A stretch of 63,213 nt of DNA, the filler included. It is 4 parts of 4 records of this genome, joined end to end, with 100 filler letters (N's around TTAATTAATTAA, not from the genome) between each part and the next. Parts side by side here need not be neighbours in the genome. Positions count along the whole stretch, not along the records: positions 43,063 to 63,213 come from SRR2962707_4369; 3 more parts are not named here. One strand, written 5' to 3'. Position 1 is the stretch's first letter, and every line of letters begins with the position of its first letter. Of the stretch, positions 42,963 to 62,862 are shown in pieces. The notes beneath the pieces were generated by a model. That model saw only the letters and a list, made by a program, of their open reading frames with translations, made no database searches and was not told the DNA's origin. A program made the position numbers and the translations under genes.

Positions 42963-43062
42963 NNNNNNNNNNNNNNNNNNNNNNNNNNNNNNNNNNNNNN
43001 NNNNNNTTAATTAATTAANNNNNNNNNNNNNNNNNNNNNNNNNNNNNNNNNNNNNNNNNNNN
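42963..43062. other. Artificial contig spacer (N44-TTAATTAATTAA-N44)
   Basis: Same 100-bp linker. Confidence 0.98.
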
Positions 43063-43258: not shown

Positions 43259-44020
43259 TTAATCAGAGTCCATGAATTGGTGCAAATGTGCAGACAGCGC
43301 TGGCGTCAACGCTGGAACAGCATGCCCGCACTCGACTTTCATGTGCTGGATCCTGGCGAGTGGGCATCTCGATCGTAGCGCGTCACTCAGCTGCGAGATG
43401 GCAAGTTCGTCGCGACCATTCGTGCCGAGCGTGTCGTCACGTGTACCCAACAACAGAAGTACTTTGGGACTCGCAGTTGTGTCTATCACATGCGACGGTG
43501 CAAGATCGCTGGCGTCTGGCGGACAAATCATGATGACTTTAGTGGGACGTTTCACCTGCCCAAAGCAGGAGCTCGGCGCAATGGCCAGGAGAAACGCGGC
43601 CAAAGCGCCTTCGGATATCCCAGCAACTGCATCACACGCCCTGTGATGCGAACCAAGTGTTTTGACAAGATGGCTCAGCGAAACATCCCACCAACCGTCA
43701 CCGACATTCGGCGTCAACTTCCTCAGTAAACCCGGGCTTGCTGACCATGCGAAGTGTTTGGCTGAAGGGTCGTATGGCAGTCCCGGGCCAACTAGGCTGG
43801 AATATGCCTCTAGCATGGGCGGGACCTCGTGAGGCGCGGAGACGGTCACAATGCGCATGAAATCCGATTTTGTCCAGCCCATAAGACGTAGAATGGACTG
43901 CATCGTGTGCTCATCTCCAGACATACCATGAAGAAACAAAAGCGTGCGGCAGTCACGGATATCATCACCTGGGGCCCCGTTTTCGATGGCGAAGGCGGCA
44001 TCCTTGGTACCACCACGATC
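43259..44020 (-). CDS. FSH1/LovG-type serine hydrolase domain, predicted last exon (thioesterase) of the PKS-NRPS
   Basis: LFLHG, SAPH, nucleophile elbow GISEG, LGTRDD, ECGHAVP (Ser-Asp-His triad); preceded by branch point CACTAAC and acceptor TGTCAG. Confidence 0.75.
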   Translation of the reverse strand, partial: DRGGTKDAAFAIENGAPGDDIRDCRTLLFLHGMSGDEHTMQSILRLMGWTKSDFMRIVTVSAPHEVPPMLEAYSSLVGPGLPYDPSAKHFAWSASPGLLRKLTPNVGDGWWDVSLSHLVKTLGSHHRACDAVAGISEGALAAFLLAIAPSSCFGQVKRPTKVIMICPPDASDLAPSHVIDTTASPKVLLLLGTRDDTLGTNGRDELAISQLSDALRSRCPLARIQHMKVECGHAVPALTPALSAHLHQFMDSD

Positions 44021-44133
44021 CTGACAGCAAGGTGATTTCGTTAGTGCTACAGAAAGGACGAGGAAGCAACAAGCGAGCGAAACGGACCACATCGCTAGCA
44101 AACAATGCTACTTAGGCTGCTCAAATTACGTAC
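44021..44133 (-). other. Predicted 113-nt phase-0 spliceosomal intron joining PKS-NRPS to hydrolase
   Basis: Donor ACA|GTACGT at 44133, pyrimidine-rich body, branch CACTAAC at 44046-44040, acceptor TGTCAG|GAT at 44021; splicing removes the TAG at 44097 and joins both frames. Confidence 0.75.
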
Positions 44134-47100
44134 TGTTGCAATGCTGCGCTCCGATTCTGAATCGTCGTCCTCCTCTTGCCATCGTGCAAATAACTTCGTT
44201 AGCGTCTTTCCAGGCCCACATTCGTCGAACACAGTGCAAGCAACGGCGACGTGACGTTTCGCACATTCCACCATACTGCTGAAGTGGCATGGAGCGGCAA
44301 CGTTGAAGCTCGCCAATGTGGTCACAATGTCCGCCGGGTCAGAACCAGGTGGAAAGTATCGAGCCTCGTTCGCAGTATTCAGGACTAGCCCAATTTTATT
44401 TGGTTGGAAAAGAGCTGACGCGCGTCGAACAGCCTGGCCGTACTCGGCCGCTGCTTCCGCCACTGCCGGTGTATGGAAAGCCGCATGCACGGGCAGGAGC
44501 CGACAGCCAGCGCCTTGATTTTCCAGCACGCGGCGTGCTTCTTTAACCGCAGTCAACGTACCAGCAACGACGAAAGTGAGGCGCGTTAAGTGGTTGGCGA
44601 TTGAAACGCCACGGCAATGATCTCGCAACGTTGCCTCCAGCGTCGCACAATCAACGCCTCTGACAGCAAGCATAGCTCCAGGTTCAACGCGCTGAAGACA
44701 AGCACCACGTTCAATGACCAAGTCTAATCCGTCCTCGACAGACAAAGCACCGCTTGCAACGACCGCTGACATTTCTCCAAGGCTGAGTCCGAACACGACA
44801 CTTGATCCATCTATGGTCGTGGCGCTGCCGTCGCCAGTTCCATCGACGCAAAGCTCACTTTTCTTACACTCGCCGTAGACGTATCGGTCGAAAAACGCTA
44901 GGACACTGTCGACAAAGGTGAATACTTGGATTTCAGTCGTCGTGACAAATTTAATCAAGTCGGGGTCACAGCTTAGTTTTTGGGCGGCAACTTGCATCAG
45001 GCGACGGTTTGAATGGCGAATGTCTTCTTGTACACCCTGCCCAGGGAACATCACAACAACTGTACGTGGTGCGATATCCGCTGGAAGCATTGTTGTAGCA
45101 GGAGCAGTCGTATTGGAGTTGCAGTGGATCTTGCTCGCAATGAACGCTACTAGGCTGTCTATAGAAGTCCGTGAGTAGAGGTCCACGATTTCCAGTGCTT
45201 GGCCGGTAGCTTGTTTAATCATGGCCAACATGCGCACGTCCAGCAGACTCTCCCCACCGAGTTCGTGGAACCCGATTGTCGTCGGTATCGGTCCGTCATC
45301 AGTCTCGTCCCAGTGAAGCAAATGTGTCCAGATCGAGACAATGGCCTGCCGCACACGGAGTTCAAGCTGCGCATCGAGGTGTTGCGTGTCTATCGGCTCG
45401 CATTGCAGCGCCGCGTGCATGTCCGCTGAGGCAGCCTGGACCTTGAACGTGCTGCCCGCCTCCCACCACTCACGGTGGATCGGTTTTCGCAAAATAATAC
45501 TGTTGCGCTTGCCGTTGCTGCTGCTGCTGCTGCCGCTGCTTTTGATGGTGTTCCGTGTAACTGAGGTTGTGCAGGCAAACATGAACTTCTCTACAAATTC
45601 GCGCTCTTCCGGGTGCGTTGGACAGACAACGACCGACTCAAATCCTCGAGCAGCCAGCAGCGCTTCCCACTTTTCGGGTTCCAGCATCGGATTGTGAGGT
45701 CGCAATTCATAATCGGAGAAGTACCACCAGCCGTCAAGGATCCCCCATGCAAGAGTAGCCCACGTTTCATTGCGGCACGATTCTATGATAAACAGCGTCC
45801 CACCCGGACACAGCGTGTGTTGCAGGTTTTCAACGGAAAGCTCGATGCTCTGTGTGGTGTGAATGACATTGTATGATATAATAACGTCTAACTCACCGAG
45901 GATCCCTTGCGAAGCCGCATTTTTCGTTATGTCCATAACCGAAAACGTCATGAACGAGTACGTGGCACTGAACTGATCTCTGGCGTTTTCAACAAATGCC
46001 TTCCCCAAGTCAGTAAAAATGTATTCGATGTTTTTGTCACCCAAATCTGCCAATTTTGGGAGGAGCTCTCGCGTCACCAGCCCCATTCCTGCCCCGCACT
46101 CCAAGATCCGCACTCGCCGGCTAGGATTGCGCTTTACCAATTCGTGCACGTGGCTGCAGATGAACGAGCAGTACATGCCGTAATACACATTGCCCAACAA
46201 GTCTCCCAATTTCGTGAACTCTTCTTCAACGAAAAAAAGGCGTCCTTCGGGGTATAGTACGGTCAGAGGACTCGTTTTCGGCGGGTTTGCAAGAACGTTC
46301 TTGTACTGCTCGGACACAGTCAGTGGAAATCGAAATTGGTCTTCGAATCCGGGGTATCTCGCGGCAAGTTCCGCGCATTGGGATTGTAGCTGTGAACGCG
46401 TGGGGGGGTCGTCCACAACGAACGATATAGTGGGCGATGTCACTGTTGACGATGTCGCGTGAGTGACGCCTGGCCGAGTAGCTTCCCCACCTTCAACTAG
46501 AGAAGCACACATAATATGCAGAAGCTTGCCGTACTTCGATTGAAGCCCAAGACAGCCCAACAGTTCAAGCTCTGTTCCGATAAACTCGCGCACTCCCATG
46601 TCAGTGGCGAAAAATCGGCGGATAATCCCGTTCACAAATTCCAGCTGGCGACTGCCAAAATCAGGCGCAGGGCGCAGGTTCAAACTGTGGACGAGTCCAC
46701 GCACCATCCGGTGTTGTTCCTGAAACGCTGTGGCCAAGTCGTATGGCCCGAGCGGTGTTGCGCTCGCAGTCAGGCGCAATGTTGACACGCCTGGCCAAAA
46801 TCGTTTCGGGTTGAACAGGCATTGCGGAACGGACACACAGTGTTTCAAGGGCAACGAAGTGTTGTCACCGACATGCTGCGTCTTTGCGAGCCACCGACGC
46901 AGAACAGCCAGCCTTTCCTGTGGTACAGAACCGGCAACGCGCACAAACTCTGCAAGATCTTCGTCGCTGTGCACACTCCCGAGTCCGGGCAGGCGAGATG
47001 CCGTTGTTGACAATCGACGCAGCCACGTGTCAAGCATGGTGTCAGATTGCGGAAGAGTGTCCAGCATTCGCTGCAAGCTGCGCAGGTTTTTTGCCAACAC

Positions 47101-50100
47101 AGCAATGACTGCCTCCGTGCGATGCAGCGTGACAACACTTGTAGTGTAGCACACGTCACGAAAAGTGCATACATCATCACATCCGACAGTGCGTAGTCGC
47201 TTGACCAGCGAACGCAAAGCGCCCAATAAACGATGCTGAGACGGCGCGCTGACAATCAGCGGACACAATACCTCAACGTGCATGTTAGTAGTGGCATGTT
47301 TATTTGCGTTTTTACGGCTGGCAGCTAAAACTGCGTGCACAGCAGTGCCATTAAGGCCGAGCGAGGATACGCCTGCGATTCTAGGTTCAAATTGCTGGCT
47401 CCAAATGAGCTTCGACGCAGAAAGCCGAAGACGCGACGACGTTGACTGAAACCATGAATGCGGCGACGTCATGTTAACGAGTGGGGGAATTTCATTGTTC
47501 TGCAGCACGGCCAAAGTCTTGACAACACCCAACAGACCGGAGACGCTGTCCAAGTGTCCGAACCTCGCTTTAGAGCTCCCAATATAAACGGGGGAAGCGC
47601 CAGGAGAAGATTGTCCATATACTTCGTGCAGTGCCTGCAGTTCAATTCTATCCCCTAGCGACGTTCCCGTGCCATGTGCTTCGATATAGCTGACATCCTC
47701 TGGGTTTCGAGCTGCTTGGGCCAGCGCGCGCTGCATCGCGGTGACTTGTGACGATTTTGAGGGTGCAGTGATCGACGCACCACGACCTACACTGCACGAC
47801 GCTATCCCCGCCACCGTACCGTAAACACCAAAGCCATCACTGCGTACATCTTCGCCGCGACGGAGAACCAGTGCAATCACTCCTTCTCCCAGAATTGTAC
47901 CGTCCGAACCGTCCGTAAAAGGGCGGCAATGACCGTCGCGGCTCAGTACACCCATGCCTTCATACTCCCTGTCGTGCATGGGGATGCAGTGAATGTTTGC
48001 TCCAGCTACAACTGCCGAGTTACACTCTCCCCGCCGCAAGGACTCACAAGCAGCTTTCAGTGCAGCCAAACCAGATGCGCAGGTCTGGTTCACAACGAGT
48101 GAAGATCCGCGTAAGTTGAACACAGAAGCAACGTGTGTTTGCACAAACGCCGGGTCTAATCCCGGGACACTAGACGGGGAGTCTTTGGGCAGAACACTCC
48201 CGTAAGAAATGTTGGATTGGGCAATAAACACTCCGCACGTCTCTGCACCCCGGACAGCAAGGGGCATGTCTGCCGTACAGTAATGAAGGAGTCCGCAATC
48301 GTTGAAGGCTTCGGCAACCACTTGCAACACTAGCCGCTGTTCCGGCGCCATGTTGACGACTTTCTCGTGCGAAGCCAACCCGAAAAACGCATTATCAAAA
48401 TCAGCCACATTTTCCAAAAACGCACCATCGAAAAGCGGCGGCGGTTGCCCGTCAGCTCCCTTTTGAACGTCGGCAGCACGTTCTGCCGGGAACGCTGAGA
48501 CAAAGTCATGCATGCAGCTTGAATCGGAAAGTACGGTTCGGAGATCTGCGATGGACGCTATCGATCCGGGTAGACGGAGTCCAACGCCAACAATTGCGAC
48601 ATCAGACTGCGACAACGGGTCCACGCGTGCATTAATGTCAACGTGGGCACGTTGTTGCGTGCCAACTGGTTCACGCAATTGGGATGGACGGTTCAATCGC
48701 TGCGCGAGACGGCGCAGGGTCGATATCTCGAACATGTCCACAATATCAACGTCACTCGCCCCTGGAACTGTCCGAATCAGCTTGTTGTGGAACAGCATCA
48801 ATTGGAGGCTTGAGCCCACACTCAGAAGTGGGGTGTTCTCGACGTCCAAGTTCGTCGTGGATGGCAGCTGAATGCACTCCGACCACAGTTTCACAAGCAA
48901 CTGCAGCTGGTCACCGCTATAGCCGTCTTTGGACGAGTCGTTTGTGTGGGCCGGAATGTGCTCAGTGGAGGCTGTTGGATGGGCTGCAGCCACACGCTGT
49001 ACCTCCGAAAACGGGGGCAGGAGGCGCCTGGATACCTTGCCGTGTGCTGTGAGCGGAATGCGCTTCATTGGGTACACAAAAGTGGGGTACATGTACGACG
49101 GAACCACGTTTCGGAGACGTTTTTGCAAATCAATTGCTGAGAGCGTGGTGTCTTCTGTTTCAATGAACACCACAAGCGAGTCACCCTCCACCGATACCAC
49201 AGCTTTGTGCACCTCACTGCATACCGTCGTGATCTGGTCTTCGACAAATCCTGTGTTCACACGGAAGCCACGCACCTTGCGGATACCGTCAGCGCGGCCA
49301 ATAAATTCAATGTTCCCGGCGTGGTTGACACGAACCAAATCGCCAGTGCGCATGAATCGGCCGACAAATTCCCCATTCGAACGACCAGCGGTATCATCAC
49401 GAATACAAAGCTCTCCCGCTGCGAACTGCCCTACAGTTTGAGCCAAGTTGCGTGGGTCAACCAACTTCAAAACCACATTCTGCATCGCGCGGCCTATCGG
49501 AACAGTTCCGCTGGCTGTGTGAATTGGAAGAAAATTATTGGCCTCGTAAAAAGTGCTGTCGACAGTAGCTTCGCTCATTCCGTACGAATTGAGCACACGA
49601 GTAGACTCCGGAAGTGCGAGGCGGATGGAGTTAAAAGTGTGTGTGTGCAGAACATCCGACCCACAGACCAGAATTCGGAGGCAGGCCAGTTGTTCACTTT
49701 CCCACTTCACCAGCTCTGAGGCAAAGCCAGGTGTGACCTCCATGACACTGACGCTGTAGCGCCGCACCAAACTCGCCACAGCCCGAACATCGATGCGACT
49801 TTTGGCGGGGCAGATCACCAAGTGACCAGCGCAGGCCACCTGCGACCGCAATATATCTCCCATACAAACATCGAACGAAAACGGTGCCCATTGAAGCATG
49901 GTGTCGCGGTTAGTCAAAGCGTACTCGGCTTGCCACGATGACGCCATGCAGTTGGCGTTGGCGTGTGTTATTGAGCACGCCTTGGGTTTACCAGTTGAGC
50001 CACTGGTGAATATTGTGTAGGCAACGCTGTCTTTGGTAATAGAACGACTGTAGAGACCGTCGTTGGCTTGTTGCTGCAGACGCGGAGCTGCCAACTTCAT

Positions 50101-53100: not shown

Positions 53101-56100
53101 ATGTCCTGGCGCAACACCGTCTAGTTCCACAGTACGAACGCTCAACCGTTCAACAGCGTCACCAAATTGCACAGGTCGCATGGTTACCCCGGCTGCATTC
53201 TCATCATGTCGCTGAAATGACAGTCGCAAACCATCGTGGCGCTCTATTGCAACCGACAAGCCCTGTCGCACCGCCGATTCATCCAAGCGACCTGAGCTCC
53301 GAAGCGCGCAAGGGAATACGTACTGATTCGGAAAGAGTGGGTTGAGCGCAAAAAAATCTTGAGCAGCCGGACTTCCATTGTTTAGAGTGCCACTGTCGTC
53401 AGCACCAAGTCCGCTACCCGTGCCAGTCGCTCCGAGCGTTTGCCCAGCGTCCAAGCCATCGGAGTCCACGGAGTTCTGGGCAATCGCTTCTGACAAAATA
53501 CCCAAGATTGGAGTTGCCATGACGTCGGTCACAGACACGGTCAACCCTTGCCCCCTCAAGCTCAACATCAACGATACTATCGCAATTGAGTGGCCCCCAA
53601 GTTCAAAAAAATTGTCATCTTTCGATGGCTGAGTGTTGAGCCCCAATACTTTCATGACTGAGCCGCTCAAAACGTCCCAAACTTTGCGGCGCTGCTTTCC
53701 ACTGGCTCCATCGTTGTTGCTGTGCCCGTGGGAGCAACCTGTTGACGATTCAATCGCCAACGCACGCGCAGCTTCAGGCAAGTCCCCAAGTCTAAGCTTG
53801 CGTGCAACAATGTCCGCACCGTTGCGCGATGCCAATAAATCTTTGGTAGAGTCAGAGGCCACTGCAAGAGCAACAATCCTGTCTGGCATCGCGGCGGCGG
53901 GAAGTGCATCGCCAAGAATAGTCCTAACGTGCTGTGCAGCACCAACAAGCAGGGCATCGTGGGTTGTGCGCGTCATTGTTGTGGAAGCGGCCAGCAGCGC
54001 AAGTCGATCCACTTTGAATGTTTTGGTCGTGGGAATTGAAGGGATGCGCTCGATTGCAGACGGAACCATGAACTTTGGCAATTTTGCTGCTAATGTCTCA
54101 CGCAGTTTCTGCGTCGTTGGGATCACCCCACCAACATCTGACCCCGTGACTACGAATGCGACGAGTGAGTCGGCTCGAACCCCAACTGCAGCCTGCTTTA
54201 CGCCATCGATGCTCTGCAATGCAGCCTCAATCTGACCCACCTCAATACGGCGTCCATGCACCTTGACCTGCGAGTCGTTGCGTCCCAGGAAGTGAAGATC
54301 ACAGGAAATTGCCGACACCACAACCACATCGCCGGTTCTGTACTCATGTCCGACGAAACGCTGCCGCGTGAGTTCAGCGCGATTCCGGTACCCGCGACTA
54401 ACCGCCGCACCACCGACCCAGAGCTCTCCTGCGACACCTAACGGCAATGGTTGTCCGTGTTGATCTCGTACAACGCCGGTAACGCGTGGAAGAAAGGATC
54501 CTATGGCAATGTTGTCTTGACTTTTCGTGTTTTGCACGTGATGGAACGTGGTGAACAAAGTGCACTCGCTCGGACCGTACCCGTTCCAAAGCCGCACGCT
54601 GCGTTCGAGTAGCGCGCTCGCAGTGACCGCGTCTAACGGCTCGCCAGCTGCAATTACTGCATCGATCTTGTGGGTCCCAACGACCCAGTGGGACGATAGA
54701 AGCATTTTAAACATGGTTGGCGTCGCCTGTAAAAAATGTGGTGAGTATTCTGTAATGCGACTCCACAGCAAATCAGGGTCCACTTGTTCGGCTTCTGAGC
54801 AAATGTGCACATGCATGCCAAACTGCAATGGGCACAGAAGCTCGACAGCTGAAATGTCAAAGCAAGCTGCGGACACAGCAAGGCCGCGCTTGCCAGGCGA
54901 CAACTGTGCCATTTCACCGATCGTGCTGAACACATTTTGTACACTGCAATGGTAGACCTCGGCGGCCTTTGGTTGCCCAGTGCTCCCACTTGAATACACC
55001 AAAAAGCAAATGTCTTGAGGGCTGCACTCGTACACGTAGCCTTCTGACAATACTTGATCGTCGCGTGCGTGTCCAATGTTCAGCAACGTCGCCACGCTGA
55101 TGTTGAGGGCACGACTTCTGTGTGCATCGTCAAACAAAACAGCCTCAGCCTCACAATCCTTGGCCATCCATTCAATCATTTCAGTAGGGTACGCGTCATC
55201 CAAATGCACAAAAGCTGCGCCAACTTGTAAACATGCCAGCATAGCCACTAGCAGCTTGCAACTCCGCCGGAGGAGTAAAGCAACGGTTTGTCCATGGCGC
55301 ACTCCGTTCTTACACAGCAACGCAGCCACAGCAGCTGACGATTGCATGAGCGCCATGTTAGTTAGACTGGAGCCGAAAGAATCGGACACGCCAATTTCGT
55401 TCGGAATTTCTTGCAACGATCGCAAAATGCGCGAAAACACCGAAGCCAGCGCTTCAGAATCTGGAATCTCCGTTTTCATAGTTTTCGCCCCACATGGCCG
55501 CTCTGTGAGGGCCCCCGTCAATCCAACGTCAGATACACAAGTCAGCTTTGTGCAGTTTAAAACATGCGACAGAACGTTCGAAAACGAAGTGGCCATCGTT
55601 GGTGCAGTTTGAAAGTTGGACAGAGCGCATCGCAACACATATTGTCCGTGAATCAGCTGCAGCTCTGCCTCTGGCGCTGAAAAGGTTGAAACCTTGGCAA
55701 GCGCCGAGTATTGACACTGCACAACTAGCGACAAGATGGTGTCGGCTGGATTCAGCGAAACCCTGTGTTCCGCTGTGCCAGAATCCGTCTTCAAAATGAA
55801 CTGATCCGAGTGCAATAAACGCGACGTCCACAGCTGGAACGCAACGACGAGCTCTGCTGAGGTGCACGTCAATTGTTCAACAATCAACTCGGTGAGCATA
55901 GAATCCGCAGTTTTTGCAGCCAATGTTGCCTGCGCTTTGTCCGCGTAGTTTGCAGCCACTTGAACCTCCACGTCGTCAACTCCAACGATTAGCGTTCGGA
56001 TCCCACCCACCGTAGTTGCACGGCCTACTTCCACTCCGGGAATCCTCAGTGCAGCTTCGACGAAAAGAGGCTGTTGTTCCAAGTGTGGGAATATCTCGAT

Positions 56101-59100
56101 TCCACCATGGCAGAGTTGGCGACCGTAAAGAGAGGTCTGCACTCCAGTGGATGCATCGACGACTTTCCCAACTGCGCCATGCACGCCTTCAATTTGAACG
56201 CTGTGCTCCGGGCAGTTGAACGTCAGCGGTGAGCCGTCTGCGAGCGGGAAATGGCTTGCGTCTATTCTGTGAGCTGCAAGTGGTCGCGATGCGTGTTCTG
56301 TGACCAGAAGCACGGTGATGGAAGCCAAGGGACAGATCACATGCCAGGCGTTCAGCAGCAGAGGATTGAACGCCACATAACTAATGACGATATGCTGCCA
56401 TTTTGGCCGCTGAGTAAACTCTGCACCACACAAGCGCACAGTTTCTGGGGCCAGCACAGCAACTGTCGCTTCAGGGGAGCGCTTGTCGTCGAGTGATAGG
56501 ACGGTGCCTCCGACTTCCCACGTTGCCAATGCAATGGCGACGCCGTGTTCCGCCGGCGCGAGTCCGGGGTCAATTGCAACCTTTGCTGTTGCATCGTGCC
56601 GCAACAAGTGGCGATACCAACAGGCAGCTTGCGCGAGCCGTTCCGCCGAAACAGCCGCCCACTGGCAATCCACAACGCCATGGAGTCGGTCACTACATCT
56701 CGGTCGAAGGCACGTTGCAGGACGGCCGGTATAGCTGGCTGTGTGAACAGGAGGGAGTGTCACCGCGTCGTCACGGCGTACAACACGAAACCATGGCGCG
56801 GTTGCCGTGGCAAGATTCCCTGTGTCTTGCGTTGATGCGGCGTCATTGGTGGCGACAAATTTCACGTCGTATCGCCAGCCAAGCTCCGACTGGTGTTCAA
56901 ACAACTTCTTAGAAATCGAGACCGAGCGAATTCCAGGACACGTGGCAGCAACGTTGTCAAAAAACGCCGGAGGGAGGAACAGGTCATCGTCAAGGCTCAC
57001 GCGAACGCGTCTCGCCGGACAACAACGACGATGCCGCCTCAACTGGTCCAGCAACTCGTACTTGGTCAGCAAATTAGGTACATCGCCAACCCAGAGAATC
57101 CCCCCTGGGCAAAGCCTTTTGGCCAGCGTGACGAGAACTCGATGCGTGTATGCCGGCCCGGGAAAGTACTGAACCACACTGTTCAAAATTATGACGTCGT
57201 ACTGTGCATCTGCTGGAATTGTCGCGGGCAAGTCCACACCAACATGGAATCTGGCATTGTGCCATCCATTCTTGTTCGCCAGGTTCTGCGCCCGCTCAAT
57301 CATGCGCGCGGAAATGTCTGTGCCGACATAACTTTCGACAGAAAAGTTAGCCAGTACAGCCTGCATCGTCAGGCAAGTTGCTACGCCCACCTCAAGCACT
57401 GCAGCGCCACGTAAATGCGGTGCCAGCTTTTCGACTGTATTTGCCACAAAAGCGTCAATTTCCGCGTCTGCCATGACGCGCGTGGCGTCAAACGCGGAAT
57501 ACCACCCACCAACATCAGCATCGTCGTCCTCTGCTGCTTTGGTGGACAAATGATCCCACAGGGCGGAGTACGTTTGCGCGTTGCTCGGCTCAACGAAGTC
57601 CTCACTTTCTGGTCCAACGCAAAACACAACGAGAGGTTTCGTCCCGCGCGACCACGCCAAACGAGTACATGTATGAACCGAAGCCGGATCTGTGATGAGC
57701 GCGCCAATTTGCGAAAACCTCACTTGACTGCTGAGTTGAGAGATCGAAGTTTTTGGGCTCATCAGAACGAACGTGCGTCCATGCCGCAGGCATGCGCGCA
57801 CAGCTGCAACCCACGCAGTAGATCCCGCTCCAGCAAACACCGCAATGTGACTAGCGGCTGATTCGAGACTCTCCAACTGCTTCGACAGTGCAGCCTCGTA
57901 ACCCCCGACACCAGCAGGAAACAGCAGTTTCGTGATAGACATGCCCCGATCGTGGTCTTGAATGCTTGCTGCTGGCGTTGATGAAGAACGAGCCGCATTG
58001 GGCTGCTTCTCTTTAGCGAGCATGCGGCAGACGGGAGTTTGCAACGGTTGTGATGCGGCACACGAGAGCACCCGCTCGAAAGTGTCAAGAATTAACGCGA
58101 CAAACGGGCGAGAGTAAAGATCTGCGTAATATTCAACGCGAAGAACACACGTCTCGTTTGCGCTGTGCTCGGAAGCAGCCTCGAGCACGAAATCAAAGTA
58201 TAGATCCCACTTGCATGTTTCGTCTCGCGCAGTCAATCGCTCAAGGCCTAATTCATTGTGCGCAGCAGACCCACGTGCTTGAGCGCCGCTCTCACGACTG
58301 CCGGTTTCGTTGTGCAGTACAACTTCTACGCCGTACTGTGGTGATGTGATTCCAGGATCTGTTGTAGATTTCACCGACTGATCAAATTCAGATGGAAAAT
58401 GTGTGTTTCCCTGGCATTCGCGTGACCGTGCAGCCAGCTCTGCAAGCACGTCTCCAAATGTCGAAGCAGATGAGAACTTCACGCGCAGAGGAAACGACTT
58501 TGCAAAGCACCCAATGGTGGACTGCTCATCAACGCCTCTGCTCGCGACTGGTGTCCCAATGGCCAGGTCGTCTTCGCCAGAGAACAAGTGCACAAGAATT
58601 ACCACGCACGTTGCCAAGCACTCAAAAAGCGTTACGCCAGAACCTGCCGCAACGGCTCGCAGGCCGTCGATTAATTTTCTCGGCAAAAGTCGCACCGCTT
58701 TGGATCCCTTGAACGTGAACACCTTTGGACGCGGCTTATCGCCCGGAATAGTCACAGGTTGCAGACCTTTACATTCACGTATCCAGTACTGTCGTGACGA
58801 ACGTACTGCTGCTGAAATTGCGCCGTTTCGCAGTGCACACTTGACCAAACTCGCATCCATGTGTGGTGACAATGCAGCTTTCGGGGCACCACAGAAATGA
58901 TCGTATGCGTCCCAAAGTTCTTTGAAGAACAGAAAGTGAGAAGTGCCGTCGAATACGACATGGTGCACTGCTGAGCCGAAAAAATACCGACCGTCCGTCA
59001 TAGGCCACAGTACACACTTGACAGGGGCAGAGTTGGCGAGATCCATTGGCGTCTGCGCAAGGTCTTTCAACAAATCATGACACAGCGCGTTTACACCATT

Positions 59101-62100
59101 CTTCCAGTTGCCATCGTCTAGCTTAGAAATGTCCTGCACCACCCAATACGATGGCAAAAGCGACGTGGCTGTCGACGTCCGTTCGGTGTCGATGGGTCCC
59201 ATGTCCAGAAACACAGTACCAGCGGGCACACCAGACATAGTGGCAGAAAAGTCAAGCTGCTGACACAAAATGCTGTCAACAAACGAGGGCAGCATTTGCT
59301 CGGAGCTTGGGAAAAGTTCCCGCGCACTGGCAACGGCCATGCCCATGATACCCGTTACTGCTTCACGCGCGGCAGGTTTCAACATGGCGCTGTGAAAGGG
59401 GGCTGTGATGCTCAGTGACGTGAACCGGCAACCGGAAGTTGGAGAAGACGGCATTTGCATCGCCGTTCGAACCGCAGCTAACGAGGCCGGATGTCCACAC
59501 AACGTTAGCGTGTCCGGCGTCACAACAGCGATGGCAATGCCTCGTCCGCCCTCAACGCTTGAAGTAGCTGCATCCACATCTGCCCCATTCGCTCCGCGCA
59601 CTTGCAGCATCCACGAGTCGTTTCGGTAATCTGCAAAGGTCCGAGTGTACCGATCCACGCTGTGGCCCATGTGGACCAAGATGCGAAGCATATGCAGCGA
59701 CAAGGGCACAAGTTGCTCGTGGCGCTCAGCCCGGTTCAGGACGTGAACAGTCGCGGCACCTTGACTGAAGCCGATAGGTGGCCGCGTCGCCAGCATAAAT
59801 TGTTCATGGCGCATATTGACCCGGTGCAACAACTCCATGTACCCAACCATCTGCCATAGAAATAATTGAGGCATTTCATGCGCCATTTTTCCGATGCTGT
59901 TGGTCCCATCGACGCCCTCCGCAACGCGAAAAGCGGTGTAACTTCGGGTAATTTCTGACTTCACAACCATATCAGCGTCGCGTACGAATTGAGCCGTTGC
60001 CGGCAGCGATGCGGGTGCATCGCCAATTTGAACGCCATGCCCGCCAAAGAAAAGGCGAGTGTCTGCATCTGCCACCATTTTTCGAAAAGCTGCGGGGATC
60101 GGCAATGCACTCGGAACAGATGTCTTTGGCGCAGTCCTTGGAACTTGTTGTATGATCTGCAGCCTCGGTGGGGCCTCGAGCATCCGCTGAACAGGCAGTC
60201 TGTTGGGCGAAGTCTCAAATATCAATCGAAAAGCAACGTGCTTGGCCAACACGTGATTGACGGCCTTCTCAAACTCGGGCACTCGCAGCGGCCCGCGTAT
60301 CAGCAGTCCATTCGAAGTGTTGTAGGCGGTGGGATTGACCAGGTGTGCAGCGTAAACTGGTAGTTGGGAATCAAGGAGGGGGAATTCGGCACCTATCCGA
60401 CCAATGTCATGCGGGGAGACCGTTCGGCTGGAGTAATCGTTGCGGTCGGCCTCAATGCCACCATTCTCGCTCTCATCCGTTTCCAGAGAAGCAGCACTTG
60501 TCACCAATCGAACAAGCTCGTCAAGGCTGGCATTGAGACCAAACATTGCCGGCGCCTCAATTTGCACCCCAAATTCTTGGCGGCAAAAGGTTCCGACCGC
60601 TGTCGATAACAGCGAATCTACTCCCAGCCGCACAAGTTCAGTGGAATGCTCGTGCTCCCATTTCACTTTTCCTGCTCCAAGCCCGCATTTGTGTTCCAGA
60701 AACCAGCAGAGTCTTTGGCGGACAATGTTTGGGGACCTGGCTCGTGGCTGAGGTCGAACATAGGTTCCACCAACACGCGACCGTTCCGCAACGGCTGTGG
60801 CTATTGTGGGCGAAATATCATTGCCGATCGAGCGCGGCCAGAAACGCTGACGCAGAGCAAACAGTGGAGGTGGCAACAGTGGGAGCATGCGCGTGTCAGA
60901 GTAGAGCGCGGGCCAATCGACTGCTTCGCCATTCATGTAGGCACGGCTGGCCCCATCGAAGCTGAGAGGTTTCGGGCAGTTGCGTGCCTGCCGCTTCGGG
61001 ACGACCAGCGACGGGGCCACACCGCGCAACGCACTGGCGAGTTGATGCAAATTTTGCCCGCGAGCCACTGCACGATATCTGAAGTACGATTTGCGCGTCA
61101 CTCCGGCAGCAGTGGCTGAACGGCCCGCGTTGATGGAGAAGCAAAAAGAATTCAGCTGCCACTCTTGAATACTCCCACTCTCGATAGAGGCAGCGAACAT
61201 TTCAGCCTCCTGCCGCAAAGCCGCTTCAGTGGCACCGCGTAGAGTAATGAGATGATGACAGCTACGACTATCCCTCAGTGCAGATTCTGGCGGTGCCACT
61301 GGCTCGGCCTCGACAACCGCGTGCACGTTTGTCCCCAATAGTCCGAATGCGCTCACAGCGGCAAGTCGCAAGCCAGTGCGACTTGTTTTCGGATAAGCTT
61401 GCTTTTCGCGACAAACCGTGAACGGGAGATGTGCCCAATCGATGCTCTTGTTAAGAGTGTCGACGTGAAGGCTTGCCGGAATCAAGTTGTGCTCGAGAGA
61501 CAACAGGACCTTGATCAACCCTAAAACACCAGCGACACCGTCCGCGGTGTGCCCAAAGTTCGATTTGCAAGAGCCGATCTTGCAGTTTCCGGCCATGCGC
61601 CCCAATACATGGTCGTCCTCGAACGCCAACCACGCGTCCCGCAGCCCAGCGAGCTCGATTGGGTCACCTTTCCGTGTTCCGGTGCCATGCGCCTCGATGT
61701 AGCCTAGCTCGCTCGGGTGAATGCCGCACGCGTCCCAAGCGCGCTTGTACAGCTGGGCCTGTGCGACGGGGTTTGGGGCGGTGATGCCGCTCGAGCGGCC
61801 GTCATGGTTGGCCGCCGTCGCCAGTAGAGTTCCGTAGATGTGATTGCCGTCCCGAACAGCGTGCTTCCTCAGCTTCAGCATCACAGCCGCGGCACCTTCG
61901 CCCTTGGCAATGCCGTTGGCGCCGTCGTCGAAGGGCTTGCACTTGACACCGTCGCCGGTGATGCCGAGCTGGTTCCAGATGTGATTCGGCGTGTTCAGGG
62001 GCAGCAGATCCAGCGTGACGCCCCCGGCCACCGCCGCGGTGCACTCCCCAGCCCGCAATGCTTGTGCGGCCAGGTGCACAGCGAGCAACGAAGACGAGCA

Positions 62101-62709
62101 CCCGGTCGCGACCATCATGCCAGGTCCGTGGAGGTCGAACTGGAACGACACACGGCCGCCGATGAACGGCGCGTGGTTACCGTGGGAGCTGCTGGGCATT
62201 CTGGGCTCGGGCAGCAAGCCCTTGTACTTGTTGATTGAGTTGCCCACAAACACCGCCGTGTCGGACCCCACCACCGACGTCTGCATCCCGCAGTCTGCCA
62301 GTAGCTGCCACGTCACCTCGAGGAAGAGCCGCTGCTCCGGGGACAAGTTCAGCGCTGTCTGCTCGTCGATGCCGAACAGGTGGTTGTCGAACTCGTCGAC
62401 GCGCTCGAAGTACGACCCGAACAGGAACGGTTTCGTCTTGTCCACGGCGCTCCCCTGCCGCCGCAAAACGTTGGCAATGTCGGTCGCGCGGCGTTTCGGG
62501 AACCGGCCTTCGCCGACGATGTCGCTGCCGTCGCACAGCGCCTGCCACACCTCGGCGACGTTGTCGAGACCAGGCAGCCTCGCGGCGACGCCAACGACGA
62601 CAACATCATCATCGCCGCGTTCACAGACTGGAGCTCGTGATGGTGCCAGGGGCCGACTCTCGGCTTGTCCTGCCCCCCCGACGCCGGCACTGCCGGCTTG
62701 CTGTTCCAT
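44095..62709 (-). CDS. Hybrid PKS-NRPS megasynthase: KS-ACP-C[AT insert]C-A*[MT]-C*-A-PCP-E-PCP-C-A-PCP-KS-cMT-ACP-AT(-TE by splicing)
   Basis: 18.6-kb open frame, first ATG at 62709. KS1 ATGCSSS/HGTGT/KSNFGH (~62610-61305). ACP GVDS (~60615). C1 HHVVFDG (~58955). A2 YSSGSTGQPK/YGPSE/YRTGD (~55440-53995). PCP GGHS (~53590). E-like HHLAVD (~52950). PCP GGHS (~52050). C2 HHLLVD (~51485). A3 FTSGSTGKPK (~50470-49010). PCP VGSSL (~48810). KS2 NQTCASG/HGTGT/KARFGH (~48605-47320). cMT LECGAGMG (~46090). ACP GGES (~45250). AT FPGQG/GLSLGE/AFHT (~45065-44185). Asterisks mark degenerate domains. Confidence 0.92.
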   Translation of the reverse strand: MEQQAGSAGVGGAGQAESRPLAPSRAPVCERGDDDVVVVGVAARLPGLDNVAEVWQALCDGSDIVGEGRFPKRRATDIANVLRRQGSAVDKTKPFLFGSYFERVDEFDNHLFGIDEQTALNLSPEQRLFLEVTWQLLADCGMQTSVVGSDTAVFVGNSINKYKGLLPEPRMPSSSHGNHAPFIGGRVSFQFDLHGPGMMVATGCSSSLLAVHLAAQALRAGECTAAVAGGVTLDLLPLNTPNHIWNQLGITGDGVKCKPFDDGANGIAKGEGAAAVMLKLRKHAVRDGNHIYGTLLATAANHDGRSSGITAPNPVAQAQLYKRAWDACGIHPSELGYIEAHGTGTRKGDPIELAGLRDAWLAFEDDHVLGRMAGNCKIGSCKSNFGHTADGVAGVLGLIKVLLSLEHNLIPASLHVDTLNKSIDWAHLPFTVCREKQAYPKTSRTGLRLAAVSAFGLLGTNVHAVVEAEPVAPPESALRDSRSCHHLITLRGATEAALRQEAEMFAASIESGSIQEWQLNSFCFSINAGRSATAAGVTRKSYFRYRAVARGQNLHQLASALRGVAPSLVVPKRQARNCPKPLSFDGASRAYMNGEAVDWPALYSDTRMLPLLPPPLFALRQRFWPRSIGNDISPTIATAVAERSRVGGTYVRPQPRARSPNIVRQRLCWFLEHKCGLGAGKVKWEHEHSTELVRLGVDSLLSTAVGTFCRQEFGVQIEAPAMFGLNASLDELVRLVTSAASLETDESENGGIEADRNDYSSRTVSPHDIGRIGAEFPLLDSQLPVYAAHLVNPTAYNTSNGLLIRGPLRVPEFEKAVNHVLAKHVAFRLIFETSPNRLPVQRMLEAPPRLQIIQQVPRTAPKTSVPSALPIPAAFRKMVADADTRLFFGGHGVQIGDAPASLPATAQFVRDADMVVKSEITRSYTAFRVAEGVDGTNSIGKMAHEMPQLFLWQMVGYMELLHRVNMRHEQFMLATRPPIGFSQGAATVHVLNRAERHEQLVPLSLHMLRILVHMGHSVDRYTRTFADYRNDSWMLQVRGANGADVDAATSSVEGGRGIAIAVVTPDTLTLCGHPASLAAVRTAMQMPSSPTSGCRFTSLSITAPFHSAMLKPAAREAVTGIMGMAVASARELFPSSEQMLPSFVDSILCQQLDFSATMSGVPAGTVFLDMGPIDTERTSTATSLLPSYWVVQDISKLDDGNWKNGVNALCHDLLKDLAQTPMDLANSAPVKCVLWPMTDGRYFFGSAVHHVVFDGTSHFLFFKELWDAYDHFCGAPKAALSPHMDASLVKCALRNGAISAAVRSSRQYWIRECKGLQPVTIPGDKPRPKVFTFKGSKAVRLLPRKLIDGLRAVAAGSGVTLFECLATCVVILVHLFSGEDDLAIGTPVASRGVDEQSTIGCFAKSFPLRVKFSSASTFGDVLAELAARSRECQGNTHFPSEFDQSVKSTTDPGITSPQYGVEVVLHNETGSRESGAQARGSAAHNELGLERLTARDETCKWDLYFDFVLEAASEHSANETCVLRVEYYADLYSRPFVALILDTFERVLSCAASQPLQTPVCRMLAKEKQPNAARSSSTPAASIQDHDRGMSITKLLFPAGVGGYEAALSKQLESLESAASHIAVFAGAGSTAWVAAVRACLRHGRTFVLMSPKTSISQLSSQVRFSQIGALITDPASVHTCTRLAWSRGTKPLVVFCVGPESEDFVEPSNAQTYSALWDHLSTKAAEDDDADVGGWYSAFDATRVMADAEIDAFVANTVEKLAPHLRGAAVLEVGVATCLTMQAVLANFSVESYVGTDISARMIERAQNLANKNGWHNARFHVGVDLPATIPADAQYDVIILNSVVQYFPGPAYTHRVLVTLAKRLCPGGILWVGDVPNLLTKYELLDQLRRHRRCCPARRVRVSLDDDLFLPPAFFDNVAATCPGIRSVSISKKLFEHQSELGWRYDVKFVATNDAASTQDTGNLATATAPWFRVVRRDDAVTLPPVHTASYTGRPATCLRPRCSDRLHGVVDCQWAAVSAERLAQAACWYRHLLRHDATAKVAIDPGLAPAEHGVAIALATWEVGGTVLSLDDKRSPEATVAVLAPETVRLCGAEFTQRPKWQHIVISYVAFNPLLLNAWHVICPLASITVLLVTEHASRPLAAHRIDASHFPLADGSPLTFNCPEHSVQIEGVHGAVGKVVDASTGVQTSLYGRQLCHGGIEIFPHLEQQPLFVEAALRIPGVEVGRATTVGGIRTLIVGVDDVEVQVAANYADKAQATLAAKTADSMLTELIVEQLTCTSAELVVAFQLWTSRLLHSDQFILKTDSGTAEHRVSLNPADTILSLVVQCQYSALAKVSTFSAPEAELQLIHGQYVLRCALSNFQTAPTMATSFSNVLSHVLNCTKLTCVSDVGLTGALTERPCGAKTMKTEIPDSEALASVFSRILRSLQEIPNEIGVSDSFGSSLTNMALMQSSAAVAALLCKNGVRHGQTVALLLRRSCKLLVAMLACLQVGAAFVHLDDAYPTEMIEWMAKDCEAEAVLFDDAHRSRALNISVATLLNIGHARDDQVLSEGYVYECSPQDICFLVYSSGSTGQPKAAEVYHCSVQNVFSTIGEMAQLSPGKRGLAVSAACFDISAVELLCPLQFGMHVHICSEAEQVDPDLLWSRITEYSPHFLQATPTMFKMLLSSHWVVGTHKIDAVIAAGEPLDAVTASALLERSVRLWNGYGPSECTLFTTFHHVQNTKSQDNIAIGSFLPRVTGVVRDQHGQPLPLGVAGELWVGGAAVSRGYRNRAELTRQRFVGHEYRTGDVVVVSAISCDLHFLGRNDSQVKVHGRRIEVGQIEAALQSIDGVKQAAVGVRADSLVAFVVTGSDVGGVIPTTQKLRETLAAKLPKFMVPSAIERIPSIPTTKTFKVDRLALLAASTTMTRTTHDALLVGAAQHVRTILGDALPAAAMPDRIVALAVASDSTKDLLASRNGADIVARKLRLGDLPEAARALAIESSTGCSHGHSNNDGASGKQRRKVWDVLSGSVMKVLGLNTQPSKDDNFFELGGHSIAIVSLMLSLRGQGLTVSVTDVMATPILGILSEAIAQNSVDSDGLDAGQTLGATGTGSGLGADDSGTLNNGSPAAQDFFALNPLFPNQYVFPCALRSSGRLDESAVRQGLSVAIERHDGLRLSFQRHDENAAGVTMRPVQFGDAVERLSVRTVELDGVAPGHVWDLLNSSSIVRDSLKQITESLDLKTGRLVGATIVWHGDRTTVFVVVHHLAVDVSAWWILAQELQMLWKGQAPSPVPRLPSAMATYHCFPALTKTIRAAISSGCTYNTAKFVRVSTSARVSGRSVAAMCMLALAQVTSGLSLGGTFDPLFGLADMSLRQKLPPKHQLSVVNASLRVPVQLSKNSDVESIDALLKDYLHNKHIWAEVDLEASSRKPMWLVSDLSALDTRRSDVVQWPIVMVHELQHGRFYRPVTEARLAPLELFIWAENGVLSLGLLFDTEVVHDGLGLLTAIRDCTFSALGDGSSESAKPASARGSAAEPVATAVLESLWKQLLHVDSVAPDSDFFDHGGHSLLAKILQSKMREQGLRIEAAVFLQARKFGAVAAAVSRIPLQEPSSQMVEESIHAMHSPLRACQNQLVLADSLNPDGVGYVETISVVLAQPNEQHIRRVVRGLCSMHPFLNMVVAMTSAGLMLQPKTKESIAIPLIFHDCSFTDMREAISVAKACIRPINVKTGLAYAVGITDSCRSRGLLCISLHHLLVDAFSLQCLQSDLEALVVQQRPVQITPPPLRDFFSSMVEAHYAELAFLESEDATKARQHWVHRYEDVLSPLNLCNWAGAADHPDTRGTAGCTCATVPAHVRHELRRQFSPGQLFAVFLGSYLLTLHRLSGSTDIVVPMPISSRHTLPHRSDQMGMFLATLPCRFCLQPFLDQPRASFASFVDKVASTVFEDTESQLPFDQIVAAIRASGHVAPLIDNMFNYEVRPRPRSGLPRHLFVIAAKTPLSVDFIETGGVLQIVVEYDQSLFAPSFVDAVIGLTQDCLGRAAAQPNITFRDAIPGAWAHGVATELMATTTTRTGKSKAPTRIRMGAPRCSGNLCTRIRAHCMGNPHLPAVSFNDTLIRRDELWATVTQLATGLQALEHFRQNPAVVLVLSRTPNIVILPLAVWVAGGSFTPLVAGTLEMLGEIVAQCNTKVVVTDSEAPLPIPAPSSVQIVAVAELMKLAAPRLQQQANDGLYSRSITKDSVAYTIFTSGSTGKPKACSITHANANCMASSWQAEYALTNRDTMLQWAPFSFDVCMGDILRSQVACAGHLVICPAKSRIDVRAVASLVRRYSVSVMEVTPGFASELVKWESEQLACLRILVCGSDVLHTHTFNSIRLALPESTRVLNSYGMSEATVDSTFYEANNFLPIHTASGTVPIGRAMQNVVLKLVDPRNLAQTVGQFAAGELCIRDDTAGRSNGEFVGRFMRTGDLVRVNHAGNIEFIGRADGIRKVRGFRVNTGFVEDQITTVCSEVHKAVVSVEGDSLVVFIETEDTTLSAIDLQKRLRNVVPSYMYPTFVYPMKRIPLTAHGKVSRRLLPPFSEVQRVAAAHPTASTEHIPAHTNDSSKDGYSGDQLQLLVKLWSECIQLPSTTNLDVENTPLLSVGSSLQLMLFHNKLIRTVPGASDVDIVDMFEISTLRRLAQRLNRPSQLREPVGTQQRAHVDINARVDPLSQSDVAIVGVGLRLPGSIASIADLRTVLSDSSCMHDFVSAFPAERAADVQKGADGQPPPLFDGAFLENVADFDNAFFGLASHEKVVNMAPEQRLVLQVVAEAFNDCGLLHYCTADMPLAVRGAETCGVFIAQSNISYGSVLPKDSPSSVPGLDPAFVQTHVASVFNLRGSSLVVNQTCASGLAALKAACESLRRGECNSAVVAGANIHCIPMHDREYEGMGVLSRDGHCRPFTDGSDGTILGEGVIALVLRRGEDVRSDGFGVYGTVAGIASCSVGRGASITAPSKSSQVTAMQRALAQAARNPEDVSYIEAHGTGTSLGDRIELQALHEVYGQSSPGASPVYIGSSKARFGHLDSVSGLLGVVKTLAVLQNNEIPPLVNMTSPHSWFQSTSSRLRLSASKLIWSQQFEPRIAGVSSLGLNGTAVHAVLAASRKNANKHATTNMHVEVLCPLIVSAPSQHRLLGALRSLVKRLRTVGCDDVCTFRDVCYTTSVVTLHRTEAVIAVLAKNLRSLQRMLDTLPQSDTMLDTWLRRLSTTASRLPGLGSVHSDEDLAEFVRVAGSVPQERLAVLRRWLAKTQHVGDNTSLPLKHCVSVPQCLFNPKRFWPGVSTLRLTASATPLGPYDLATAFQEQHRMVRGLVHSLNLRPAPDFGSRQLEFVNGIIRRFFATDMGVREFIGTELELLGCLGLQSKYGKLLHIMCASLVEGGEATRPGVTHATSSTVTSPTISFVVDDPPTRSQLQSQCAELAARYPGFEDQFRFPLTVSEQYKNVLANPPKTSPLTVLYPEGRLFFVEEEFTKLGDLLGNVYYGMYCSFICSHVHELVKRNPSRRVRILECGAGMGLVTRELLPKLADLGDKNIEYIFTDLGKAFVENARDQFSATYSFMTFSVMDITKNAASQGILGELDVIISYNVIHTTQSIELSVENLQHTLCPGGTLFIIESCRNETWATLAWGILDGWWYFSDYELRPHNPMLEPEKWEALLAARGFESVVVCPTHPEEREFVEKFMFACTTSVTRNTIKSSGSSSSSNGKRNSIILRKPIHREWWEAGSTFKVQAASADMHAALQCEPIDTQHLDAQLELRVRQAIVSIWTHLLHWDETDDGPIPTTIGFHELGGESLLDVRMLAMIKQATGQALEIVDLYSRTSIDSLVAFIASKIHCNSNTTAPATTMLPADIAPRTVVVMFPGQGVQEDIRHSNRRLMQVAAQKLSCDPDLIKFVTTTEIQVFTFVDSVLAFFDRYVYGECKKSELCVDGTGDGSATTIDGSSVVFGLSLGEMSAVVASGALSVEDGLDLVIERGACLQRVEPGAMLAVRGVDCATLEATLRDHCRGVSIANHLTRLTFVVAGTLTAVKEARRVLENQGAGCRLLPVHAAFHTPAVAEAAAEYGQAVRRASALFQPNKIGLVLNTANEARYFPPGSDPADIVTTLASFNVAAPCHFSSMVECAKRHVAVACTVFDECGPGKTLTKLFARWQEEDDDSESERSIATVRNLSSLSSIVC

Positions 62710-62862
62710 TCCTCCAGCCGCCGGCGTAGAATCGTCTTTCACAGTTTGGTGCGACGGCACGACGCAATGGTTAACGCACTACTCGATTGCATCAGGCAAC
62801 ACAACGTGTGCAGTCACGCGAACAGCCGGAGGCGAACGCAGACAACAAAAAAAACACGGAAA

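Follow-up and report, generated by a model that had tools for sequence, protein, structure and literature searches.

The stretch of DNA analyzed here (the window, 63,213 nt) consists of four records (1-9647, 9748-31630, 31731-42962, and 43063-63213), joined by N runs (at 9648-9747, 31631-31730, and 42963-43062) and TTAATTAATTAA spacers. Its fourth record is filled by one gene, which encodes a hybrid of a polyketide synthase (PKS) with a nonribosomal peptide synthetase (NRPS), hereafter called the synthase. We consider it likely that this is a nuclear, transcribed, and spliced gene of an under-sampled microbial eukaryote, encoding a single PKS-NRPS-PKS assembly line of 6445 amino acids (aa) in which both ketosynthase (KS) modules lack an acyltransferase (AT) of their own. 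With carriers named ACP or T, condensation (C), adenylation (A), epimerization (E), and methyltransferase (MT, or cMT for C-methyltransferase) domains, and an FSH1-family hydrolase, the domain order reads KS-flank-ACP-C(AT-fold insert)-A-like fragment-MT-(480 aa)-A-T-C/E-like-T-C-A-T?-KS-flank-cMT-ACP-AT-(intron)-FSH1. Protein database searches, including one of 1.84 billion representative proteins, found no protein of comparable architecture, characterized or not, and for the whole protein no relative of similar length above 26% identity over 21% coverage; among metagenome contigs queried with the C1 region, no close relatives were found by DNA patterns. The original prediction, made from the letters of the window, had likewise matched the architecture to no characterized pathway. 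What is new is twofold: no homolog of comparable architecture was found, and an AT fold appears to interrupt the first condensation domain, C1.

The gene lies on the minus strand, as do all features of the synthase described below. An open frame of 6221 codons extends from 62760 to a TAG at 44095-44097, with its first ATG at 62709; residues are numbered from the start of this frame (P0001 numbering), and 17 has to be subtracted for numbering from the ATG. Coding exon 1 (44134..62709, 6192 codons) is followed by a spliceosomal-type intron of 113 nt (44021..44133, GTACGT...CACTAAC...CAG), in which CACTAAC is located 20 nt before the 3′ end. The length of this intron is not divisible by three, and it contains an in-frame stop. 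Its removal joins ...SIAT to DRGGTK... and opens the frame into 44020..43262, which together with a TAA stop (43259-43261) makes up coding exon 2 (43259..44020, 253 aa). The predicted product is therefore 6445 aa long (6192 plus 253 codons, one coding intron), in agreement with the nearly intronless gene originally predicted. Two public runs contain the stretch, X1, which is DNA, and X2, which is presumed to be RNA, its kind being guessed. X2 contigs span the whole gene with zero differences from the window, and cover coding exon 1 in the same way. A 3666-nt X2 contig joins 44020 to 44134 exactly, skipping the 113 nt, whereas a 2476-nt X1 contig crosses the intron unbroken; splicing at 44133-44021, which the original prediction had named as the decisive check, is thus seen in X2. 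There is a second intron in the 5′ leader (62779..62905, 127 nt, GTACGT...TAG); it is skipped by an X2 contig that joins 62778 to 62906 and extends just 30 nt to the shorter side of the junction. Both introns are kept in X1.

KS1 (61462..62610, residues 51-433; Pfam ketoacyl-synt N- and C-terminal parts) and KS2 (47440..48624, residues 4713-5107; Pfam) retain their Cys-His-His triads, at C221/H358/H404 and C4894/H5029/H5069, respectively. Each is followed directly by a flanking subdomain that ends in an RFWP motif (60835..61461 with RFWP at 639 for KS1, 46792..47439 with RFWP at 5320 for KS2). A linker, an AT, and a post-AT linker together take about 430 residues. Because only 205 (KS1) and 223 (KS2) residues separate the KS core from RFWP, no AT fits after either KS. 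Consistent with this, a hidden Markov model (HMM) trained on 50 AT domains taken from proteins retrieved in the searches had the C-terminal AT as its sole match in the synthase, and Pfam places AT-fold domains at two sites only, inside C1 (SAT, 958-1123) and at the C terminus (5988-6204). When prokaryote genomes were searched with KS1 as a single-protein query, no relatives were found; an alignment query then retrieved loci. Among the best 80 bacterial KS loci (33 cis-AT, 43 AT-less, and 4 undetermined), 29 are colinear with KS1 through the RFWP region, and 26 of these are AT-less, one is cis-AT, and two are too short to tell.

Structural comparison, which covers KS1, gave the same picture. 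The AlphaFold model of KS1 and its flank, based on a 69-row alignment, has a pLDDT of 86.1 and a pTM of 0.89. At Foldseek ranks 1-16, all 14 among the matches listed are trans-AT KS-plus-flank structures, from bacillaene, oxazolomycin, isomigrastatin, and Brevibacillus systems. Normalized to the query, TM scores are 0.75-0.79 for these trans-AT structures and 0.69-0.72 for cis KS-AT didomains; normalized to the target, they are 0.79-0.87 and only 0.45-0.55, respectively. KS2 is colinear with the trans-AT KS 5erb over 605 residues (query residues 18-622). Taken together, these findings show that both KS modules are AT-less and carry trans-AT-type flanking subdomains, as the original prediction had stated. 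In a strict sense, a trans-AT system receives its extender from a free-standing AT, and here a FabD/trans-AT-like AT is fused at 5915-6204; judged from its domains, the synthase would work like a trans-AT system without strictly being one.

Two phylogenies place the KS domains in similar company. In a FastTree tree of 411 KS domains (252 AT-less, 59 cis, and 100 too near a protein end), KS1 and KS2 are paired (0.98) in a 12-tip AT-less group (0.88), outside a 96-tip group that includes the cis KS. An IQ-TREE mixture-model tree of 82 rows groups both with 18 AT-less Bacillota KS in a starred split (98); they are outside a 34-row clade, supported at 100, to which all but two of the 33 cis-AT KS (31) belong. 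The pairing of KS1 with KS2 may itself be long-branch attraction. Both are 29-42% identical to bacterial KS, the best bacterial identity being 42%. The idea that KS1 and KS2 are recent duplicates was rejected, as they are only 35% identical to each other.

The AT at the C terminus of coding exon 1 (44149..45018, residues 5915-6204; Pfam Acyl_transf_1) finds its best solved matches in FabD proteins (3im8 with 58 bits and 3ezo with 55 bits), and also matches the discrete trans-ATs PksE, DisD, and PksC, whereas the best embedded cis AT scores 39 bits. The serine in GLSLGE, the malonyl-pocket Arg, and the histidine of the AFH motif (AAFH in the synthase) all align. By these motifs and the usual rules of AT specificity, this AT is predicted to be malonyl-specific, which agrees with the malonyl-type AT originally proposed for this position.

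The second AT fold is found inside C1, which it splits in two. An N-terminal piece (60169..60384, residues 793-864) is separated by a SAT/MAT-like insert with GFSQG and APFHS motifs (59089..60168, residues 865-1224) from the remainder of the domain, which carries HHVVFDG (58036..59088, residues 1225-1575). The Pfam C profile is split accordingly: its positions 5-77 match ahead of the insert, and positions 101-440 behind it. Our own C HMM, built from 133 domains chosen with C3 as the query, is divided in the same manner (positions 37-93 before, with an independent E-value (i-E) of 2.5e-7, and 112-448 after, with an i-E of 2.4e-49). In a MAFFT alignment, the first ∼100 residues of 28 bacterial C domains fall on the N-terminal piece and are followed by a 337-column gap over the insert. 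An AlphaFold model of C1, computed with bacterial C rows, has a pLDDT of 79-92 in the N-terminal piece and 80-94 in most of the remainder. Trimmed of the low-confidence insert, the model superposes on whole C domains (Txo2) with a Z score of 34.1 and a root mean square deviation of 2.5 Å over 423 residues; the N-terminal piece must contribute, because 423 aligned residues exceed the 350-residue remainder. Because the model depends on the alignment, it speaks for compatibility and is not proof. On this modeling, C1 appears to be complete and colinear once the AT-fold guest is removed, which is the pattern of an interrupted domain. When residues 780-1580 were compared by HMMER with the 1.84 billion representative proteins, the insert was spanned only by the synthase itself among the matches listed, and the other 149 matches listed begin at query residue ∼403-486. 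A literature search for an interrupted condensation domain or an inserted acyltransferase domain found neither, which is weak as evidence of absence. As far as these searches go, an AT fold that interrupts a condensation domain would be new, and is the one unusual feature of the synthase.

From domain order, motifs, and established assembly-line logic, we infer the following route. The C-terminal FabD-like AT would load malonyl onto ACP1 (60502..60645, residues 706-753, GVDS716L) and ACP2 (45139..45345, residues 5806-5874, GGES5838L), both recognized as PP-binding domains by Pfam and by motif, within the polypeptide or a dimer, much as the discrete ATs of bacterial trans-AT systems do. KS1, which has no loading module upstream, would be primed with an acyl starter, possibly supplied by the SAT-like fold in C1, and would condense it with malonyl-ACP1 to a β-ketoacyl thioester that no ketoreductase (KR), dehydratase (DH), or enoylreductase (ER) would process. 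C1 would then couple the acyl group to the amino acid loaded by A1 on T1, C2 would either epimerize the A1 residue or add a second copy on T2, and C3 would add the amino acid of A2. KS2 would extend the acyl-peptide with malonyl-ACP2, MT2 would methylate the α carbon, and the FSH1-type Ser-Asp-His hydrolase, spliced onto the AT, would release the product. This product may be a small N-(β-ketoacyl) di- or tripeptide that ends in a methylated β-keto acid or in a ring formed from that acid, such as a lactam. Least secure in this route are how KS1 is primed, what the internal AT fold and C2-T2 do, whether the third carrier is real, and how the product is released. The line would be self-contained up to a point, since at minimum it depends on a phosphopantetheinyl transferase supplied from outside.

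For the insert in C1, the best family is the starter-unit transacylase (Pfam SAT, E 1.9e-12), its language-model Atlas score to SAT/MAT clusters is 0.96, and it keeps a serine (Ser999, supplied by GFSQG) and the histidine of APFHS, a motif covered by a weak FabD match. It is possible, if somewhat doubtful, that this AT fold is active and makes up, together with C1, a composite self-loading unit from which KS1/ACP1 would receive the starter acyl group, in which case the line, with its fused malonyl-AT and hydrolase, would need only the phosphopantetheinyl transferase as a partner enzyme. A different wiring of the same enzyme, which we regard as a minority view, would see in the AT fold of C1 an acyl hydrolase for proofreading, or else a structural relic, and in the FSH1 domain an editing rather than a releasing enzyme; KS1 would then be primed by another protein (a fatty acid synthase or a PKS), or would be iterative with ACP1 and the malonyl-AT. 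This alternative draws on the modest match of the insert to SAT (E ∼1e-12), on a FabD similarity confined to the surroundings of the histidine motif, and on the finding that the insert is not detected when the C-terminal AT is the query. In addition, an AT is paired in bacterial trans-AT systems with a hydrolase that is AT-like, and the PksD "acyltransferase homolog" is among the solved matches of the C-terminal AT. It is opposed by the family assignment of the insert to starter-unit transacylases, and by the absence from the synthase of any alternative domain for release, be it a TE, an R, or a terminal C. The original view that an assembly line and its normally separate enzymes are packed into one chain is retained for the AT and the hydrolase, both fused C-terminally, whereas the "starter AT" is one reading only.

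The NRPS part, like the KS modules, is well equipped with catalytic motifs. HHxxxD is found at 1266, 3268, and 3757, i.e. in all three C-family domains. A1 (53965..55602, residues 2387-2932; SGSTGQPK, RTGD, GRNDSQVKVHG, and FKVDR) and A2 (48991..50475, residues 4096-4590; SGSTGKPK, RTGD, GRADGIRKVRG, and GKVSR) are both detected by Pfam and by our own A HMM, and each carries the four core motifs A3, A7, A8, and A10, so that the two intact A domains of the original prediction are found again. T1 (53503..53670, residues 3031-3086, GGHS3058I) and T2 (51940..52125, residues 3546-3607, GGHS3572L), assigned by Pfam and motif, have the GGHS motif, and the C, A, and carrier serine of an NRPS elongation module are present. 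C3 (50590..51927, residues 3612-4057, HHLLVD) is recognized by Pfam and our own C HMM. With the two ACPs, this makes four carriers; a fifth candidate, the putative T3 (48691..48918, residues ∼4615-4690, VGSS4651L), is colinear with the other four. C2 (52141..53382, from residue 3127, HHLAVD), of which only the N lobe is detectable by Pfam and our own HMM, has its best solved matches in the epimerization domains of bacitracin synthase 3, TycB3, and PvdL E2 (E 1e-7 to 2e-5), which rank ahead of C domains. By sequence, C2 could be an E domain or part of an A-less C-T unit. The arrangement T1-C/E-like-T2 at 51940-53670, with two good carriers around C2, is unlike the standard A-T-E-C order.

At E ≤ 0.01, Pfam finds two AMP-binding domains and two methyltransferases in the protein, and none of the KR, DH, ER, TE, or reductase families, which agrees with the absence of KR, DH, and ER in the original prediction. 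MT2 (45619..46275, residues ∼5496-5714) is a PKS-type C-methyltransferase with a canonical S-adenosylmethionine (SAM) motif (LECGAGMG); its best match is CurJ with 138 bits, followed by DisA, citrinin PKS, PsoF, and LovB. Among solved structures, MT1 (57040..57456, residues 1769-1907; Pfam Methyltransf_12) best matches the NRPS 5wmm (66 bits), whose methyltransferase is embedded in an A domain. It is preceded by an A-like fragment (57592..57837, residues 1642-1723) that weakly matches positions 51-136 of the AMP-binding profile (Pfam E 8.8e-4, below the cut-off; i-E 0.032 with our own A HMM), and is followed by ∼480 aa without a detectable family (55603..57039, residues 1908-2386), which score 0.86 to AMP-binding clusters in the Atlas, a lead only. 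The whole region (55603-57837) may represent what is left of an A domain that had been interrupted and was displaced by A1. The FSH1 domain in coding exon 2 reaches 27.2 bits with PF03959, for a cut-off of 21, and shows GISEG, RDD, and GH motifs that, read by eye, would provide the Ser-Asp-His triad; a comparison of this exon with solved structures gave no sequence match. FSH1-family hydrolases have been linked to fungal polyketide release (LovG).

Several points weigh against an intact, spliced assembly line of the kind proposed. The loading, condensation, and release steps, as well as the product, are all predicted. The KS phylogenies, which the original prediction had suggested as a check, keep both KS outside the cis-AT clade, but their branches are long (1.28 and 2.58) and the trees are without eukaryotic references, which limits a placement in the trans-AT clade. 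The sequence score of KS2 is slightly higher with a cis-AT KS (228 bits) than with a single trans-AT KS (204 bits). The C-terminal lobe of C2 matches no family by Pfam or our own HMM, and the carrier needed between A2 and KS2 is statistically undetected (no Pfam match; hhalign E 0.013, probability 3%). Pfam finds both methyltransferases originally listed, but the SAM motif of MT1 is atypical, GVATC instead of GxGxG. Residues 1908-2386 match no Pfam family, show no BLAST similarity to A1 or C3, and give nothing with our own A HMM. The AT insert of C1 was modeled at a pLDDT below 50: MAFFT had misplaced AT rows onto C-domain columns (alignment A5), these rows were dropped and alignment A6 was used, and the insert was therefore folded without depth. 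Relatives of the insert for an alignment were found in 0 of 5 genomes with the protein as the query and in 2 of 151 genomes with PF16073. Finally, the reading of X2 as RNA is a guess, and an intron-less DNA allele would yield identical contigs. Such an allele is unlikely because two separate stretches, each an exact GT..AG, are absent in X2, a pattern for which splicing is by far the simpler explanation.

Part of these points would also suit a decaying relic, i.e. a gene that is transcribed but makes no product, or a line that works only in part. The weak A-like fragment, the atypical methyltransferase, the ∼480 residues without a family, and the undetectable C2 lobe and third carrier are all of the kind that decay would leave. 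We give this explanation little weight: the frame of 6445 codons is free of stops across the spliced junction, and intact catalytic motifs are found in KS1 and KS2, all three C-family domains, A1 and A2, four of the carriers, MT2, the two AT folds, and the hydrolase.

The composition of the window assigns the synthase contig to the eukaryote. The tetranucleotide profile of record 4 correlates at 0.87 with record 3, and at 0.64 and 0.58 with records 1 and 2, for a baseline of 0.94-0.95 between the two halves of one record; a comparison with the intron-rich contig, which the original prediction had called for, thus comes out in favor of a common origin. GC content at third codon positions (GC3) is 0.57 both in the synthase and in the mannosidase gene of record 3, and 0.64-0.70 in four genes of records 1 and 2. 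Since X2 contigs are spliced and the k-mers agree with those of the intron-rich record 3, the gene is eukaryotic and expressed, and its contig belongs with the eukaryote. The differences of records 1/2 from records 3/4 in gene style, GC3, and k-mers further indicate that the assembly is a mix of a eukaryote and at least one bacterium. Judged by the distant relatives of a protein encoded on record 3, described below, the host lineage seems poorly sampled. That the contig is bacterial instead, with an ordinary trans-AT hybrid gene and a separate hydrolase gene starting at ATG 44092, would fit the bacterial-type genes of records 1 and 2 (RsmB, PurH, ABC binding protein, and M16 pair), the in-frame ATG 3 nt past the TAG of the long frame, and the named relatives of the synthase domains, which are all bacterial, but is essentially refuted by X2 contigs that lack exactly the two GT..AG stretches kept in the DNA run X1, by a k-mer match and a GC3 that side with record 3 and not with the bacterial-looking records, and by a best bacterial KS identity of only 42%.

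The synthase shares with bacterial trans-AT hybrids (bacillaene, oxazolomycin, and isomigrastatin) the Cys-His-His KS with a flank and no AT, a KS-cMT-ACP module with a DisA/CurJ-like methyltransferase, an NRPS part in the line, and an AT of the FabD/PksE/DisD type. Unlike in these systems, the AT is fused at the C terminus and not discrete, the gene is eukaryotic and spliced, the KS are divergent and long-branched, there is no KR, DH, ER, or β-branching cassette, an AT fold is located inside a C domain, and a release domain of the FSH1 type is present. With fungal PKS-NRPS and nonreducing PKS, it has in common an AT fold of the SAT family and a C-methyltransferase akin to those of citrinin PKS and LovB. 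Unlike fungal PKS-NRPS, it lacks both a KS-AT-DH-MT-ER-KR-ACP module and a reductase or Dieckmann domain at its end, and it has two KS and two or three NRPS units, with the SAT-like fold internal and not N-terminal. It is thus not a fungal iterative PKS-NRPS, there being two KS, no AT after the KS, and no DH, KR, or R. Interrupted A domains such as the A-M-A of 5wmm offer a parallel to C1, since one catalytic fold is located in a loop of another, but in the synthase it is an AT fold that is inserted and a condensation domain that receives it.

Counterparts by architecture are described from protists. Large AT-less PKS are abundant in chlorophytes and other algae (PMC4661987), and 12 long algal NRPS-PKS hybrids have no AT in their PKS modules (PMC10794256). 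Three NRPS/PKS contigs of Karenia brevis (1930, 10563, and 34829) were classed as trans-AT, and a 7-module PKS of Gambierdiscus polynesiensis has an AT in its last module only (PMC5725682). A dinoflagellate hybrid, a ZmaK-like transcript, includes an integral FSH1 serine hydrolase domain (PMC8283056), and the PKZILLA preprint describes 56 trans-AT modules in a haptophyte. In fungi, the modular PKS LasC/LasD (strasseriolide C) has an AT in only three modules (2, 4, and 7) and ends in a TE; its authors exclude a trans-AT mode, and let embedded ATs or ACP-to-ACP transfer supply extenders to the AT-less modules (PMC13749307). None of the domain orders printed in the available text of these papers equals that of the synthase, although supplementary domain tables may hold one. 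As far as these descriptions go, the dinoflagellate/algal hybrids resemble the synthase in being eukaryotic and multimodular, with KS modules without AT and an NRPS part in the line, with a single terminal AT in one case and an integral FSH1 in another, and differ in carrying KR, DH, and tandem ACPs. LasC/LasD, as presented in the same source, is likewise a eukaryotic assembly line with mostly AT-less modules, but is a pure PKS with full reductive loops, ATs inside modules, a TE end, and no NRPS part. By architecture only, the synthase would be grouped with the protist AT-less NRPS/PKS hybrids.

The view that trans-AT hybrids are mainly bacterial, on which the original prediction relied, is therefore dated in light of what these sources report for algae, dinoflagellates, and a fungus, and the rarity it implied for the synthase was overstated because AT-less hybrids, a single terminal AT, and a fused FSH1 are known from algae/dinoflagellates. 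Current views are not overturned, as protist AT-less hybrids are already on record.

The interest of the synthase lies elsewhere. To our knowledge, eukaryotic modular synthases are widespread in sequence data, and almost none is tied to chemistry. With one coding intron in ∼19 kb, the gene has a compact build; it is also expressed and seems complete, so that it is a tractable candidate for heterologous expression. The synthase further provides a test, set up by nature, of the way in which AT-less modules are supplied when the AT is part of the same chain. If the AT fold within C1 were functional, it would add a novel mode of combining loading with condensation, which would be of interest for assembly-line engineering.

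Further observations concern the surroundings of the gene. Records 1 and 2 (1-9647 and 9748-31630) have a bacterial look, with dense genes and stops overlapping starts, and encode RsmB, PurH, heparinase II/III, a pair of M16 peptidases, aldehyde dehydrogenases, and an ABC binding protein; their k-mer profiles are alike (0.80), and unlike those of records 3 and 4. Record 3 encodes coiled-coil and ankyrin proteins split over several frames, as well as a GH38 mannosidase-like frame. Its coiled-coil protein (31931-35923, plus strand) runs through at least five successive frames, which would fit several short introns. The GH38 α-mannosidase-like frame (39056-42962) has at least 1279 aa and runs off the end of the record; a 712,656-bp contig already recorded encodes this protein with a length of 1488 aa. 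Its only close relative shares 45% identity across 27% of the query; the relatives that bear names are animal enzymes with 27-33% identity over 9-16%. Rfam and tRNA scans of the window found nothing. For the synthase itself, the unspliced 6204-aa product is already on record, identical, within a 923,923-bp contig.

A last set of observations relates to the X1 contigs. They are short by 1, 2, 1, and 1 bases at 46232, 46402, 52613, and 62673, the last of these sites being a run of G, and X2 agrees with the window at these sites; the losses look like contig errors rather than alleles. X1 contigs also break at a short repeat (45500-45547). Single contigs diverge into unlike sequence at 47085 and 48062, with 255 loose letters each, which could represent an assembly-graph branch, a second haplotype, or a paralog.

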